From a virus, in the IMG/VR virus record IMGVR_UViG_3300001525_000041, positions 1 to 32,935 of that record: DNA of 32,935 nucleotides; one strand, 5' to 3'. Below are positions 2,401-6,477 of this stretch, one piece after another. The translations under genes and the position numbers were made by a program. The notes below the pieces were generated by a model. It saw nothing but the letters and a program-made list of their open reading frames with translations, was not told where the DNA came from and did no database searches. Numbering within the stretch: the stretch's first letter is position 1; every line of letters starts with the position of its first letter.

Positions 2401-3018
2401 CTATTGGAAGAAACTAGGGTTGTCAGCAATCAGCTGTGCTCTCTGCTCTGCTGTGTACTTGAATCTTCCCTTGTCGTCGGTGGCATATATGTCGTCCTTA
2501 GACTTAATGCTTCCACCTGTGTTGCCGCCCTTATTCACGCTAGTGAAGTGCGGCATGTTGCTATTATCTGCCTTGAACAACATCTTGCTGTCCTCAGCTT
2601 CCGTCAGAGCCTTAATTGCGCTCTCCACATCTGATTTCTGATTCTTAGATGCCTTAAGGGTAGGAATGTCCAGACATCCCATAATGGCTTTTTCGTTCAG
2701 ACCATTAGCGGCTTTAATTGATTCCCTCAAAAGGTCGTTGAAGTCTCTGTCAGCAAGCTTCTGCTTGTAATCTCTTTCAGCTTCTTCAGCTTTCTTTTTC
2801 CAGTCCTTAATGGACTGGTTCAACGCTTCGACATCTACACCATCAAAACCTTTTAGGGTTTCTTCTGCTGTGTCCGCTCTGCCTTTTTCCCTGTCTCGCT
2901 CAGCTGTCATATCTTCGAGATCCTTTTTGACCTTATTGATGTCCTTGCCGTTTTCTGCCATTACGAAAGAAATCTGCTCATCTGTTAAGCCCTGCGCCTT
3001 TAAGTCCTCTGTTTTCAT
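2401..3018 (-). CDS. Capsid scaffolding protein (GP20-like)
   Basis: 205 aa, highly charged coiled coil. N-terminus MKTEDLKAQGLTDEQISFVMAENGKDI is typical of phage GP20 scaffolds. RBS GGAGGG. Confidence 0.75.
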   Translation of the reverse strand: MKTEDLKAQGLTDEQISFVMAENGKDINKVKKDLEDMTAERDREKGRADTAEETLKGFDGVDVEALNQSIKDWKKKAEEAERDYKQKLADRDFNDLLRESIKAANGLNEKAIMGCLDIPTLKASKNQKSDVESAIKALTEAEDSKMLFKADNSNMPHFTSVNKGGNTGGSIKSKDDIYATDDKGRFKYTAEQRAQLIADNPSFFQ

Positions 3019-3102: not shown

Positions 3103-3169
3103 TTGCATGAGTCGGGATCGAACCGACATTGTGTTTTTTCACAGTTTTTGCCCCTTAAACTATCATGCA
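3103..3169 (-). ncRNA. tRNA-like element (acceptor stem, D-arm-like and canonical T-arm; non-canonical anticodon arm)
   Basis: Minus strand reads TGCATGA-TA-GTTT-AAGGGGCAA-AAAC-T-GTG-AAAAAA-CAC-AAT-GTCGG-TTCGATC-CCGAC-TCATGCA-A. It has a 7-bp acceptor stem and a GTTCGATCC T-loop. It is only 67 nt, and the anticodon arm is a 3-4 bp stem with an A6 loop. Confidence 0.45.
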
Positions 3170-3213: not shown

Positions 3214-3242
3214 ATTATATCACGCATGTTATTTTATGTAAA
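3214..3242 (-). promoter_or_regulatory. Near-consensus sigma70-type promoter for the capsid operon (TTTACA-17-TGaTATAAT)
   Basis: Minus strand reads TTTACAtaaaataacatgcgtgaTATAAT: extended -10, 17-nt spacer. It lies immediately downstream of the terminator at 3274-3302. Confidence 0.6.
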
Positions 3243-3273: not shown

Positions 3274-3302
3274 CAAAAAAGAGAGCAGATTATCCTGCCC
3301 TC
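3274..3302 (-). terminator. Intrinsic terminator ending the accessory cassette
   Basis: Minus strand reads GAGGGCAG-gataat-CTGCTCTC followed by TTTTTTG: an 8-bp stem with one G-U pair. Confidence 0.7.
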
Positions 3303-3311
3303 TTTAATCAT

Positions 3312-3767
3312 TTACATTCTTTCGATCATTTTGATGTATTTTTCGATGGTTTCCCGTTCTTCCGGGGTGTCCGCATCACGCTTAAGCTCTTTTAGCTTAT
3401 CATGCATGTCTCCCATAAAGTCCTCAAGATCCGCAAGCATACTCTGTTTGGATGCCATAGAATGGTCGTTCCTGTACATCCGCTTGCTGTCCATGTACCG
3501 TTTCTCCGAATAGCGGCCATCTTCGTAAGAGTTACCGTCGTCATATCCACGGGAGTATCTTCCCATGCTATCTCTTTTTGCTCTTACACGGCCTCTCGCC
3601 TGACTGTATCGTTCATCTTCGTAATCTTCCATGCCTTCCACAGTCTTAAGATCCTTGTACATGTCGATCAACTTGAATGCTGTCTCGAGATTGCCCGTGT
3701 TCAGCCCCTTGTCCGCAATCTTGTCAATCTCTTCACAGATTACATCTAACATCTTATCATGTTTCAT
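3312..3767 (-). CDS. Hypothetical protein: helical ends, R/Y/D/S-rich low-complexity centre
   Basis: 151 aa with RBS GTGAGGTAG. No recognisable catalytic motif. Confidence 0.6.
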   Translation of the reverse strand: MKHDKMLDVICEEIDKIADKGLNTGNLETAFKLIDMYKDLKTVEGMEDYEDERYSQARGRVRAKRDSMGRYSRGYDDGNSYEDGRYSEKRYMDSKRMYRNDHSMASKQSMLADLEDFMGDMHDKLKELKRDADTPEERETIEKYIKMIERM

Positions 3768-3772
3768 TCTGT

Positions 3773-4153
3773 CTACCTCACATTCTCGACACGCAAGGTG
3801 CCGCTTACTGTTACACCAGCTGTATCAAGCTGTAAACCAATGGTGGCTACATTCGGATACTGAGCTATAACGGTTCTGATTGCATCCACGATAGGAACTG
3901 TCACGAATCCAGCCGCCGTAGTGGTAGCTGTTGCCGTAGCTCCAGTAGCTACTCCATCAGCCAAAACAGACACCGTCACGTCCCCGGCAACACCGGTCAT
4001 GGTAATTGCTACATCTATGTCCCATAGTCCACCCGTCCGAAGAGACAACAGACCGTTGCTGTTCGTGATTTTTCCGTTTGTATTTTTTTCTGTTAAAAAA
4101 GGGATATATTGACCTACTACCGAAGTCCATCCCGTTACTCGTCCTAAGAACAT
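3773..4153 (-). CDS. Hypothetical protein, possible BclA-C-terminal / C1q-TNF-like jelly-roll domain
   Basis: Start was moved to the ATG at 4153, which has a strong RBS (AAGAGGTGA). The longer ORF (to 4198) overlaps a hairpin. The A/T/V/G-rich beta pattern (LSLRTGGLWDIDVAITMTG...VTVSGTLRVENV) resembles BclA_C. Confidence 0.55.
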   Translation of the reverse strand: MFLGRVTGWTSVVGQYIPFLTEKNTNGKITNSNGLLSLRTGGLWDIDVAITMTGVAGDVTVSVLADGVATGATATATTTAAGFVTVPIVDAIRTVIAQYPNVATIGLQLDTAGVTVSGTLRVENVR

Positions 4154-4236
4154 GTTATTCACCTCTTTCTTGCAGGAAAAGGGCGCACCCGTAGGCACAC
4201 CCCGTTCCCGAATAAGCCTTACGCTCCAATTACTCG

Positions 4237-4974
4237 CTATGCAATTGTTGTTCCGTTGTAATAACCGGTGTAATTCTGGCCACAGCAGCAGTACGGGTTC
4301 TGAACCACATATGCCGGTGTAGGGCTAGGTCTTAACTGGTTTACAAGATACTGGTTCTGTGCGCTCTGGGATGCGGCAAGCTGTAAGGAGTTGATCTGCT
4401 GATTCTGCTCAGCAATTCTCTGATTGAGAGCTTCAACCTTGTTAGCCTGAATTGCATCAAGGATTGCACGGGTCCCGGCATTCTGACTCTCGATAATATC
4501 TCTAGTGTTGTTAGAGTTATTGAAGTTCGTTTGGCAGAAACCGGTCTGAATTGCATTGTTGGTGGTGTTTGCGTTCTGTAACGCATCATAGCGATTCTGG
4601 CAGCAACAGTCTGCGATCTGAGTCTGCAAGCTGTTGAATCCCTGCAACATTGCCATGTTGGTAGCATTACCCTGGGTAAGGATGTTGGTGTTTACACCGT
4701 TGATCTGCTGTGCCTGAGCATAGAAGCCGTCACACAGACCATTGTTGACACCGTCGATTTTGCGTTCGATGTTGGCAAAGTCGGAAGTCAGAATGTATCC
4801 GTCTGTTGCGGATCCAGAACCACCGCTAAAGCCTCCGAAGCCATTTCTTCCCCAGCCGAAGATCAGGAACAGAACAATCCACCACGCACCGTTCCCGCCC
4901 CACATGCCGTCGCCGTTGCCATCTCTGTTGCCCTGTAAAAGAGCAACATCACTTGCTGATAATCCGTCCATCAT
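4237..4974 (-). CDS. Hypothetical membrane-anchored N/Q-rich protein with two CCC triplets
   Basis: 245 aa with RBS GGAGGAG. Carries a Gly/Trp-flanked TM (WWIVLFLIFGW), a long N/Q-rich region, and the motifs DCCCQN and YCCCGQ. Confidence 0.65.
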   Translation of the reverse strand: MMDGLSASDVALLQGNRDGNGDGMWGGNGAWWIVLFLIFGWGRNGFGGFSGGSGSATDGYILTSDFANIERKIDGVNNGLCDGFYAQAQQINGVNTNILTQGNATNMAMLQGFNSLQTQIADCCCQNRYDALQNANTTNNAIQTGFCQTNFNNSNNTRDIIESQNAGTRAILDAIQANKVEALNQRIAEQNQQINSLQLAASQSAQNQYLVNQLRPSPTPAYVVQNPYCCCGQNYTGYYNGTTIA

Positions 4975-5026
4975 TGTATAATCTCCTCCGATTATGATTT
5001 ATTTGCTTAAGCCGTGTCGACCCGAC

Positions 5027-5230
5027 TTATTGCCGTAATAAAAACTGCATCTGTTGCGCCATTTGTTGTGCTTGATTAAGCTGTTGCTGGTTGATCTTCC
5101 CGGATTGAAGCATCTGCATCACCATGCTCCGGGGATCCACTCCTTGCATTTGCTGCTTGAATTGGTTGAATTGCTGTATCATAGACATAGAGTTGTTCTG
5201 ATTTATTTGCGCATACAATGGGTTACTCAT
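5027..5230 (-). CDS. Hypothetical Q/N/M-rich small protein
   Basis: 67 aa with RBS AAGAGGTAGTGG. Its start overlaps the stop of the upstream gene (ATGAGTAA), suggesting translational coupling. Confidence 0.55.
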   Translation of the reverse strand: MSNPLYAQINQNNSMSMIQQFNQFKQQMQGVDPRSMVMQMLQSGKINQQQLNQAQQMAQQMQFLLRQ

Positions 5231-5660
5231 TTTCCACTACCTCTTTCTTTTTTGCGGCAGGCCTGCCGGATGATTTTACCTGTTTTTCCAGCTCTTCATA
5301 TTTAGCCTTCAAATCGTCAAATTCATTCCGAGTGATATAATTATCATTGGACTGATTTAAAACGGTCTGTGCGGCTTGTGGAGCGTTCTGCGTGCGCTCT
5401 GTGTAATCAAACACCCGTAGAGGTAAAGGCATACCGCTGGCATCCGCTGATTTGAGATAAAAGCACTGGCTCTCGCTATCCATCAATAGTACAGATTCAC
5501 CTCTGCCAACAATCCACGACTTCGCCCCGCTTTCCCCGGACACCCAGTTGATCCCGTTAGAAGAGGGAGCAGGAGAGAATCCTTGCGATTGCATAGTCGG
5601 TAAAGCCTGTGGCTGATAACCGGTCTGATAATTCGTGTATGGGTTCTGCGGATACGGCAT
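5223..5660 (-). CDS. Hypothetical protein: P/Q/Y-rich N-terminus, beta-rich core, charged C-terminal helix
   Basis: 145 aa with RBS GGAGGA 8 nt upstream of the ATG. Confidence 0.65.
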   Translation of the reverse strand: MPYPQNPYTNYQTGYQPQALPTMQSQGFSPAPSSNGINWVSGESGAKSWIVGRGESVLLMDSESQCFYLKSADASGMPLPLRVFDYTERTQNAPQAAQTVLNQSNDNYITRNEFDDLKAKYEELEKQVKSSGRPAAKKKEVVENE

Positions 5661-5697
5661 GGGTCTTGTCCTCCAGTCTATTCAATTCGTCCATAAT

Positions 5698-5726
5698 ATC
5701 TCTATCATCCGTAGATAAATAGAGAT
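5698..5726. promoter_or_regulatory. Operator-like palindrome ATCTCTAT-N13-ATAGAGAT upstream of the cassette
   Basis: Perfect 8-bp inverted repeat. ATAGAGATT (5719-5727) is identical to the 9-mer in the spacer of the leftward immunity promoter (reverse complement of 21763-21771). It overlaps a TATTAT -10-like hexamer (5693-5698). Confidence 0.45.
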
Positions 5727-5764
5727 TGCTATAACCTGTTTTCATGTTTAAATTATGGCATAAA

Positions 5765-5807
5765 AATAAAGCCACTACGAGACCGTAAACGGCTCATATA
5801 TGGCTCT
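5765..5807 (-). terminator. Possible structured terminator after the sigma-like gene
   Basis: Nested stems AGCCA..TGGCT and GAGCCG-TTTA-CGG(T)CTC, followed by TTATTTTTA. The structure is imperfect. Confidence 0.35.
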
Positions 5808-5815
5808 CTTAGGTG

Positions 5816-6031: not shown

Positions 6032-6463
6032 TCACAAAAACAAATTGTTGTGGCTACATTTTTGATAGACCTTCTTAATGTGTTCAATTGCCATTACAGC
6101 CAAATTGTTCTTAAAATCTGGATGGTCATTGCAATAGGTTTCGTATACATCAATGTCATACAGTATCTGGTCGAAGTGTTCCTTAGTATGCTTTATATCG
6201 TGCAAAATTTCATCGTCGAACCGTAGGATACGATACCGTGATGACACAGCTGTGTTTTCCCCAACTCTTTTTTCGACATCTGCAAGGTTCTTTTCAATTT
6301 TGTCGACTTTTTGCATGACATCCTTGTTCAACAGTCCACCAATCCATGACCACGGGTTTATCTTAATTTTGGAAACCTCAAGAAAACTTGCAAGAACAAC
6401 TACAGTGATTGCCGTTAAGCCACTATATTCATTCATTATATCGAACACTTCTTTAGCCGTCAT
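6032..6463 (-). CDS. Hypothetical membrane-anchored protein
   Basis: Start was moved to the ATG at 6463, which has RBS AAAGGGGA. This removes a 52-nt overlap with the upstream gene. One N-terminal TM segment. Confidence 0.55.
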   Translation of the reverse strand: MTAKEVFDIMNEYSGLTAITVVVLASFLEVSKIKINPWSWIGGLLNKDVMQKVDKIEKNLADVEKRVGENTAVSSRYRILRFDDEILHDIKHTKEHFDQILYDIDVYETYCNDHPDFKNNLAVMAIEHIKKVYQKCSHNNLFL

Positions 6464-6477
6464 CCTTAGTATCCCCT

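Follow-up and report, generated by a model that had tools for sequence, protein, structure and literature searches.

A conserved gene module of gut tailed viruses, found here among head genes, with a predicted C1q/TNF-like jelly roll and a putative membrane-associated stalk

A five-gene cassette between minor head and scaffold genes

We analysed IMG/VR record IMGVR_UViG_3300001525_000041, a JGI contig of 32,935 bp that was taken whole (hereafter the window) and that carries a temperate siphovirus-like genome, encoded mostly on the minus strand. Our subject is a cassette of five closely packed minus-strand genes, each preceded by a Shine-Dalgarno-like sequence, which lies between a minor head gene and the genes for the scaffold and the major capsid protein (MCP). 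The five proteins, named by letter and by length in amino acids (aa), are encoded as follows.

5223-5660, minus strand: A145, 145 aa
5027-5230, minus strand: B67, 67 aa
4237-4974, minus strand: C245, 245 aa
3773-4153, minus strand: D126, 126 aa from the ATG at 4153
3312-3767, minus strand: E151, 151 aa

The open reading frame (ORF) of D extends over 3773-4198 and gives 141 aa when read from a GTG, while the ATG at 4153 (126 aa) is the start in all homologues. An earlier, sequence-only reading of this DNA had described five genes of odd composition here; we located the ORFs, recomputed their composition and found homologues. Four of the five proteins match PHROG families of unknown function (1e-19 to 1e-34), with hundreds to thousands of homologues. 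The five ORFs are genuine genes, and they are co-inherited.

Co-occurrence was followed through two pattern-based scans of IMG/VR, one seeded with C245 and the other with a crAss-type protein, each of which yielded at least about 600 confirmed loci. Synteny was counted in 128 loci that hold a C homologue; these loci are not independent samples, and they include lineages without detectable portal, MCP and scaffold similarity to the window as well as contigs of 117-190 kb. A lies about 700 nucleotides (nt) upstream of C in 121 of the 128 loci, B has a homologue in 102, the D slot is filled in 107 and E is represented in 106, so that the question of whether the five genes travel together, raised by the sequence-only reading, can be answered with yes. 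The typical order is a small helix-turn-helix (HTH) protein, a small peptidase, A, B, C, the D-slot protein, E and sometimes F, with fixed spacing; many of the loci add a seventh gene, which encodes either F1, a helical protein of ~105 aa (26 loci), or F2, a peptidase of the M78-like HExxH type (8 loci). The conserved unit therefore exceeds five genes, as it takes in the recurrent partners g121 and sig67 and an ORF of 62 codons that is conserved in the lineage of the window. These lie upstream of the cassette, together with a further gene, g165.

6478-6843, minus strand: g121, 121 aa, papain-like candidate peptidase, a frequent first gene of the module
6032-6529, minus strand: g165, 165 aa, with one strongly hydrophobic segment
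5816-6019, minus strand: sig67, 67-aa sigma-70 region-4-like HTH protein
5557-5745, minus strand: 62-codon ORF (MKTGYSNLYLSTDDRDIMDELNRLE...), sharing ~100 nt with the beginning of A145, in another reading frame

The late genes that precede them are, in transcription order:

10213-11799: terminase candidate
8801-10213: portal candidate, after the terminase and followed by a Minor_capsid_2 protein
6843-8129: MuF/SPP1-gp7-type minor head protein (PF06152, 2e-60)

After the minor head gene come g121, g165, sig67, the five cassette genes, the scaffold (PF06810, 5e-30), the MCP (phrog_544, 9e-46) and head-tail genes, and the tail genes resume at the opposite end of the contig. That the cassette splits a head module, as had been proposed from the sequence, is borne out by relatives that run without it: in three contigs with MCPs 49-57% identical to that of the window (L226-L228), the order is minor head gene, one small gene, scaffold and MCP, with nothing like A-E. 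All relatives with an MCP identity of at least 77% carry the cassette. As it is missing at 49-57% MCP identity, the cassette is an insertion and is dispensable for this capsid type; it is not part of the head-assembly machinery.

The boundaries of the cassette carry their own signals.

5761-5807, minus strand: upstream hairpin (5807-5768) and T-run
5752-5760, minus strand: extended -10-like element TGCCATAAT, 6 nt before the ATG of the small ORF
3274-3305, minus strand: intrinsic terminator closing the cassette, with an 11-bp stem (hairpin 3305-3278) and a U-run
3214-3242, minus strand: sigma-70-type promoter TTTACA-17-TATAAT with an upstream TG, 11 of 12 matches, for the scaffold/MCP operon

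A self-contained unit bounded by hairpins had been described here, and both hairpins are more stable than all of their 200 shuffled versions, with a dG of -21 kcal/mol (z -5.4) for the upstream one and of -15.9 kcal/mol (z -3.6) for the downstream terminator. The upstream hairpin is maintained despite sequence changes in relatives L001, L009 and L022, and Dulem virus 35 has a different hairpin and T-run at the equivalent place; it looks like the intrinsic terminator of the transcription unit that runs from the portal gene to sig67. The capsid operon does restart at a near-consensus promoter, which lies outside the cassette and marks its boundary. For the cassette itself, a two-hexamer promoter scan found none at the TGCCATAAT site. 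A sequence of the form TGC[CAG]A[AT]AAT is kept right after the T-run in the window, L001, L009, L022 and L082, and TGCCATAAT is predicted to be a candidate cassette promoter, a better one than the TATTAT named in the sequence-only reading. That reading had also seen no good -35 element; its TATTAT (5698-5693) falls inside the 62-codon ORF and is superseded by the element at 5760-5752. The N-terminal ~27 aa of this ORF are kept, with third-position changes, in L001-L016 and L022, and no clear Shine-Dalgarno sequence was found upstream of it; it might constitute a sixth gene or encode a leader peptide.

By its varying position, its own hairpins and its HTH gene, the cassette formally looks like a multi-gene moron. 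Like morons such as the superinfection-exclusion moron gp15 of HK97, it has been inserted between genes that relatives have side by side, is closed by a terminator on the 3' side, is preceded on the 5' side by a terminator and a promoter-like element, lies at the prophage end in temperate relatives and includes a membrane-anchor-like protein. It is unlike morons in comprising five to seven genes instead of one or two, in a GC content that is not distinct from that of the flanking genes, and in its occurrence in probably virulent phages (crAss-like phages and those of the 117-190-kb contigs).

Predicted properties of the cassette proteins and their partners

C245, the hallmark protein of the module, matches phrog_16490 (1e-33) and belongs to a family without a Pfam model, which falls into more than 7,500 clusters when grouped at 90% identity and into 2,749 at 50%. 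The best 150 representatives are all single-domain proteins of 155-340 aa, and a Rosetta-stone search among them revealed no fusions. C245 consists of an acidic N-terminal tail of ~29 aa, a Gly/Trp-flanked hydrophobic core (AWWIVLFLIFGW), a Gly-rich linker, a ~160-aa low-Pro, N/Q-rich region with an invariant CCC, which is presumably a coiled coil, and a P/Y/Cys-rich tail. N and Q together make up 24% of the protein, and Cys residues stand at 81, 123-125, 147 and 229-231, thus including two CCC triplets. The hydrophobic core measures 12 aa in C245 and has a median length of 14 aa and a median KD12 of 2.83 across the family (n=253). The triplets, the N/Q-rich composition and the Gly/Trp-flanked segment had all been pointed out before and are present, but what had been called a transmembrane (TM) segment is a short core, for which we infer membrane spanning and topology from the sequence. 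Taken together, the invariant features of C suggest a membrane-associated stalk.

C245 matched no holin family; its core of 12-16 aa (the range across the family) falls short of a full-length TM segment, and its gene is not beside the endolysin gene of the window. Profiles of A, C and the common D-slot family gave no significant match to PDB sequences, and the chance-level matches of these and of the g121 profile were to pleolipovirus VP5 (0.003, helix only), HA2 (0.4-0.7) and MtrC. Two further ideas about C were dropped: that B is fused to its N-terminus in Bacteroidota and archaeal versions, as a stretch recognised by eye ('KGVDPNLMAML') had hinted (hhalign E 0.55), and that C has an anti-sigma role, for which its N-tail is too short.

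D126 is, judging by its predicted structure, a standalone jelly roll of the C1q/TNF/BclA-CTD type. The AlphaFold2 model has 10 strands (pLDDT 86.2, pTM 0.79), and Foldseek matched it to the BclA-CTD (3tyj, 1wck, 2r6q) with a probability of 1.00, a TM-score of 0.78-0.79 and an E of ~1e-5, in line with the jelly roll that had been proposed from the sequence pattern. Further matches were to EDA, C1q, collagen X NC1 and F-BclA, and TM-scores to C1q/TNF domains ranged over 0.64-0.79 (among the reference structures EDA-A1, 1rj7, and F-BclA, 9h38). In all, 111 PDB chains were matched at E <= 1e-3, and the best 50 of the 111 are overwhelmingly of the TNF, C1q or BclA type. In the viral structure database BFVD, the top matches are standalone proteins of 130-150 aa from uncultured gut phages, two of which are named 'BclA protein'. 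D126 is unlike its structural matches in being standalone, with neither a stalk nor an exosporium-targeting N-terminus, and in sharing 6-16% identity with them; it is unlike BclA-CTD also in being phage-encoded, including in phages of presumed non-sporulating hosts. No GXX repeats were found in it, and its first beta strand begins at the start of the protein (MFLGRV...).

Sequence comparison places D126 as a rare variant of its slot, with 58 homologues found. It matched no Pfam family at E <= 0.1, BclA_C (PF18573) included, and no PHROG family. The common D-slot family has a BclA_C match in one of 13 members (5e-7), and hhalign relates D126 to it weakly (E 0.0017, probability 15%). Of the 107 filled slots, 90 hold the common family and 17 the D126 type; overall, at least four beta-rich families that are mutually without detectable sequence similarity occupy this slot between conserved flanks.

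A145 matches phrog_21718 (4.3e-29) and has 1,276 homologues. In its AlphaFold2 model, a disordered P/Q/Y-rich stretch (residues 1-33) precedes an alpha/beta core (35-90, pLDDT >90), a helix (110-130) and a charged tail; Foldseek found no significant fold match for it in the PDB, the best being poxin and SH2 domains at E >= 0.5. B67 (phrog_22984, 7.4e-19) is basic (pI 10.3), with 30% Q, 13% M and 10% N, and its start overlaps the A145 stop by 8 nt (5223-5230), both in accord with the Q/N/M-rich, translationally coupled peptide described earlier. E151 (phrog_28802, 6.7e-27) is rich in D, K, E, R, M and Y and has terminal helical segments around a low-complexity centre rich in R/Y/D/S/G, an architecture that it has in common, along with a YMDSK motif, with the versions of jumbo phages; E and its Bacteroidota analogues are R/Y-rich polyampholytes. 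No Pfam or NCBIfam family was matched above threshold by A, B, C or E. Motifs of the (N/A)PY type recur at the N-terminus of A and the C-terminus of C and hint at a common binding partner.

The cassette is mosaic in some relatives: L009-L014 and L218 carry a divergent A and B pair (52% and 47% identity), with sig67, C, D and E at 84-92%, and this joint replacement suggests that A and B may function as a pair. In one Clostridia-phage lineage (L073), the D slot holds a 129-aa Cys-rich protein (8733-9119) and the E slot an R/Y/D-rich region fused to DUF7841 (9119-9670; 7e-30); in the analogous module of Bacteroides phages, DUF7841 has a gene to itself (L215, 8357-8758).

Upstream of the cassette, g121 directly follows the MuF-type minor head gene and is split from A145 here by g165 and sig67. 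It matches phrog_3754 (1.2e-29), and a homologue adjoins the C family in 105 of the 128 loci. In an alignment of 8 sequences (39-63% identity), D15, C16, H92, D98 and D103 are invariant, giving the order Cys...His...Asp (C16, H92, D98/D103) of the papain-like residue pattern. The identity of g121 as a peptidase family draws, beyond this pattern, solely on depositors' labels: among the matches listed, the Bacillus phages Kirov, Izhevsk and KoopaTroopa have family members labelled 'putative peptidase' or 'peptidase'. No Pfam, NCBIfam or PDB sequence match was found. We thus treat g121 as a candidate papain-like cysteine peptidase. Other versions of the module suggest an equivalent role, since it ends with an M78-like HExxH protein, as in ImmA/IrrE (M78) peptidases, in 117-190-kb phage contigs, and in Bacteroides phages with a 'PolyVal metallopeptidase' (a depositor's label), reminiscent of the peptidases of polyvalent proteins; here g121 would hold the peptidase role, unlike these in having no family match.

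Bacillus phage Tsamsa (L129, 4968-5363) and Geobacillus phage GBK2 (L130, 4980-5369) have members of the g121 family but no annotated A-E set, and the family further matches Prevotella Lak megaphages. As g121 occurs without the cassette, it is an independent module, a frequent but not a constant companion. A role in the processing of double-glycine bacteriocin leaders was dropped, since the GG motif is unconserved in B and the putative leader is too short; g121 might possibly be a transglutaminase that cross-links the Q-rich proteins, an idea we set aside as other lineages use a metallopeptidase in its role.

The g165 protein (phrog_37604, 1.4e-39) reaches a maximum 15-aa Kyte-Doolittle window of 2.23 at residue 38. 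Its slot is variable: L001, L007 and L016 carry the gene, L002-L006 and L009-L015 lack it or have another in its place, and in some close relatives the slot encodes a 97-aa protein, unrelated to g165, that combines a TM segment with a coiled coil. The matches of sig67 to Sigma70_r4_2 (4e-4; 20.4 bits against a cut-off of 25.7), TIGR02937 (8.6e-5; 22.2 bits against 42.9, over the last ~45 positions only) and phrog_1190 (3.9e-8) all fall below curated cut-offs. From its sequence we judge sig67 to be a region-4-like HTH protein only, not a sigma factor, and a candidate for a dedicated regulator of the module. In 60 of the 128 loci, the 4.5 kb upstream of C include a gene for a sigma-region-4-like HTH homologue, and the sig67 profile aligns with that of the HTH protein preceding C in Bacteroidota phages (hhalign probability 87%, E 3.9e-6).

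Genomic positions and hosts of the module

The module, found mostly in Clostridia phages, changes its place from lineage to lineage. In the lineage of the window and in Dulem virus 35, the minor head gene precedes it and the scaffold follows; C and MCP of Dulem virus 35 are 40% and 37% identical to those of the window. At least five other lineages have it right behind an endolysin gene, genes for one or two small hydrophobic proteins and an HTH gene, the lysis neighbours being of the CHAP+LysM, Amidase_2+Glucosaminidase, GH25+CW_7, Amidase_3+SPOR and NlpC/P60 types or an annotated holin with an amidase. In temperate relatives it lies at the prophage end, and beside the integrase in one of them (L133). 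A cultured isolate, Vescimonas fastidiosa MM35, has a prophage with the complete series HTH-g121-A-B-C-D-E-F, beside the host genes for lactate permease, LDH and miaB. In the crAss-like phage cr116_1 the module lies between lysis genes and scaffold/MCP. The cultured Bacteroides uniformis phage C3_41T2LP has a C homologue after recombination genes, with analogous partners: a beta-rich protein, a beta plus coiled-coil protein, an R/Y/D/E-rich peptide, a DUF7841 protein and, at the end, the metallopeptidase mentioned above. Further C homologues come from a Butyrivibrio phage and from two viruses with Methanomassiliicoccales as their assigned hosts; in one of the two (vir215), no A-, D- or E-like gene was recognised beside C.

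Across phyla, the homology of C is supported by profile comparison (hhalign E 1.2e-32), and no detectable homology was found between the Bacteroidota partners (D', A', E' and the peptidase) and those of Clostridia phages. According to these comparisons, only C and the HTH protein are demonstrably common across phyla.

Several observations were made at individual loci. In C3_41T2LP (L215, 5270-5890), an annotated DNA endonuclease of the I-HmuI type lies immediately upstream of C and could be a route of module transfer. In Caudoviricetes sp. vir215 (L214, 3152-4186 and 4878-5759), C is just downstream of an annotated reverse transcriptase and upstream of an integrase. A temperate lineage of ~50 kb encodes a 2,953-aa polyvalent protein (MuF_C plus ART-PolyVal) upstream of the lysis genes and the module (L131, 1-4381). 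In the ~50-kb lineage of L017-L060, the module ends 1.5-2.3 kb from the contig end in dozens of independent IMG/VR contigs, a pattern that points to either a fixed end of the genome or an assembly break that recurs just beyond the module.

The proximity to head genes raises the possibility that the proteins are virion-associated, as the genes are among the late genes and lie directly upstream of scaffold/MCP in the window, in Dulem virus 35 and in cr116_1. On the head or neck, C would then form a fibre or whisker that has the coiled coil for a shaft and D, as a C1q-like knob, at its far end; or the proteins would be packaged as internal or ejection proteins, a variant in which the hydrophobic segment of C would enter the target membrane at infection and the peptidase would mature proteins. 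C1q/TNF-like domains are common tips of phage fibres, the BFVD matches of D126 include tail-fibre and collagen-like proteins, and the variable D slot resembles the exchange of receptor-binding proteins; a segment as hydrophobic as that of C would, however, be unusual in a soluble fibre. The adjacency of g121 to the MuF/SPP1-gp7-type gene (PF06152) and the co-divergence of cassette and head genes in the window lineage fit a virion role, but relatives with homologous MCP and scaffold do without the cassette, which has its own terminators and HTH gene, and the same module is found at non-structural positions in siphovirus-like genomes, 117-190-kb contigs, crAss-like phages and archaeal viruses. 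An analogous Bacteroides-phage protein matches phrog_473, 'virion structural protein' (1.4e-8), a match limited to its coiled-coil part, and the labels 'spike protein' or 'viral fiber' that depositors gave to crAss homologues are probably weak coiled-coil matches, the PDB profile search having returned only HA2 (E 0.4-0.7). We hold a virion role to be doubtful, though it is the main alternative.

In other lineages the module is immediately downstream of endolysin and small hydrophobic proteins, and this, together with the N-terminal hydrophobic segment, long helical domain and conserved cysteines of C, speaks for an accessory role in lysis, in which C, as a bitopic membrane protein laid out like the i-spanin Rz or the T4 holin T, would time or complete envelope disruption with its partners. 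The likeness to such proteins (Rz, and T with its antiholins RI/RIII) extends to small soluble partners and to the frequent position beside holin or endolysin genes. No sequence or profile similarity to them was found, however, and unlike a two-component spanin the module offers no lipoprotein partner, as A, B, D and E have no lipobox. The window itself has its lysis genes elsewhere, namely a holin at 588-845 and the following endolysin.

24010-25011, minus strand: GH25+PG_binding_1 endolysin

In C3_41T2LP the module follows recombination genes instead, and cr116_1 is already equipped with an annotated holin, an endolysin-type enzyme and a candidate unimolecular spanin, which we read as such from its lipobox-like N-terminus and the hydrophobic segment at its C-terminus. 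The barriers to exit differ among the monoderm, diderm and archaea-assigned hosts of the module, and a position after the lysis genes is that of the late operon end, the usual site of cargo genes. A role in lysis is therefore unlikely.

The sequence-only reading had also been reminded of spore-coat and exosporium proteins, in which case the cassette proteins would enter or remodel the spore surface of the host. The BclA-CTD-like fold of D, the Cys-rich nature of C and of most D-slot proteins, the R/Y/S-rich centre of E, the lack of signal peptides and the small HTH protein upstream, of region-4/GerE size, are all in keeping with this. C homologues, sometimes with an analogous gene set, were found on the other hand in phages of Bacteroides, crAss-like phages, a phage of Butyrivibrio fibrisolvens and viruses assigned to Methanomassiliicoccales. 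Bacteroides, the hosts of crAss-like phages, Butyrivibrio fibrisolvens and Methanomassiliicoccales are not known to sporulate. D lacks the collagen-like stalk of BclA, and no similarity to coat proteins was found in Pfam or NCBIfam, so that the resemblance is one of D fold and composition only. It had been suggested to look for the five genes outside phages in sporulating Firmicutes: a pattern-based, non-exhaustive scan of 185,579 species genomes recovered only 45 loci, all of them on contigs of metagenome-assembled genomes or uncultured bins, many of them phage-sized (~31-48 kb), and the only occurrence in a cultured isolate lies within the MM35 prophage. With this host range the association with spores does not hold up, and we consider it extremely improbable.

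A tentative role at the cell membrane

We tentatively propose that the cassette belongs to a mobile accessory module of gut tailed viruses, which would be transcribed on its own and would encode a membrane-associated stalk-and-knob complex for exclusion or competition or for late control of the envelope. In this proposal, the unit would be transcribed alone from the extended -10 promoter, possibly tuned by the sig67-type HTH protein. C would place its short Trp/Gly-flanked hydrophobic segment into the cytoplasmic membrane of the host, and its long N/Q-rich helical region would form an oligomeric stalk, on which the exchangeable D, presumably a trimer like other C1q/TNF domains, would dock. A, B and E would be low-complexity partners that aid assembly or tethering, A and B acting as a pair, and the associated peptidase (the papain-like g121 here, an M78-like metallopeptidase elsewhere) would process a component. 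The complex would thus work at the cell membrane and would benefit the virus rather than build the particle, either in exclusion of or competition with other viruses or in late control of the envelope. The presence of the module in phages of monoderms and diderms and in archaea-assigned viruses speaks in favour of a target that all cells possess, the cytoplasmic membrane for example, and not of a wall or spore structure.

C and D would together resemble a split version of type II membrane ligands of the TNF/C1q kind, such as EDA-A1, which are built from a hydrophobic anchor at the N-terminus, a long oligomeric stalk and a jelly-roll knob at the C-terminus. The likeness is an analogy only, with no sequence homology: the C stalk and the D knob are separate polypeptides whose interaction is hypothesised, the stalk is presumably a coiled coil and not collagen, and D has no secretion signal. 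A bolder version, in which C and D form a cross-domain viral organelle at the cell membrane, as a split analogue of type II TNF/C1q ligands that serves virus-virus exclusion or the interaction of infected cells or debris with the gut environment, seems to us quite improbable.

A number of points weigh against a membrane-associated accessory complex. A, B, D and E have no signal peptides, so that a C stalk directed outwards could not meet D before lysis, and the hydrophobic core of C, at 12-16 aa and with nearly no flanking K/R, leaves membrane spanning and topology uncertain. A search of eight proteins (the five together with g121, g165 and sig67) against PADLOC-DB 2.0 at E <= 0.01 gave zero matches, and a set of five to seven mostly low-complexity genes is unlike known superinfection-exclusion genes. 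The GC content of the cassette (0.473, against 0.457-0.466 in the flanking genes) bears no compositional sign of recent acquisition, and the parallel divergence of cassette and head genes in the window lineage is compatible as well with a structural role of long standing. The cassette promoter is a prediction, no homologue has an assigned function, and the docking of D on C, the oligomeric states and the peptidase substrate are things that we purely infer.

The sequence-only reading recognised no enzymatic motif, and searches of Pfam, NCBIfam and PADLOC likewise yielded neither a motif nor a known family for A, B, C and E. Its suggestion of an undescribed system agrees with our finding no described counterpart of the module, or of four of its five proteins, in Pfam, NCBIfam, PADLOC, PDB sequence searches and the searchable literature. 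The familiar parts are only the D fold and the generic classes of HTH proteins and peptidases. We rate the module as lying outside known kinds of system, new in the sense of undescribed and functionally unassigned, which implies no new working principle.

The C family is comparable in size to many well-studied families, yet it has no Pfam model or annotation. The ordered gene set occurs in phages of the two dominant gut bacterial phyla, with C reaching viruses assigned to gut methanogens, and the function of the module is probably a general feature of gut viral life. Its hypothetical proteins become a testable unit, with cultured entry points in the Vescimonas fastidiosa MM35 prophage (NZ_AP023416.1, about 240-255 kb), Butyrivibrio phage Ceridwen (MN882553) and Bacteroides phage C3_41T2LP (OR296439). 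Should the module serve exclusion or competition, the biology of phage-phage conflict would gain a new type of system; should it form a virion fibre, the fibre would represent a modular adhesin of a new kind, whose C1q-like tip can be swapped.

Some further features of the window lie outside the module. A serine recombinase and Cro/C1-type repressors are encoded at 21.8-24 kb. From the promoter at 3214-3242 to the start of the scaffold gene at 3018 runs a leader of ~195 nt, which includes a tRNA T-arm-like hairpin, GTCGGTTCGATCCCGAC, at 3111-3127; ARAGORN and Rfam searches of the intergenic regions, this hairpin included, gave no match, and the structure of the leader as a whole is not unusual (z about -1). 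The holin at 588-845 is a minus-strand gene of the Hol44 type (PF16079, 1.6e-21), which lies amid head-tail connector genes, far from the endolysin gene, and Dulem virus 35 has an annotated holin at the same unusual site, after a head-tail connector gene.

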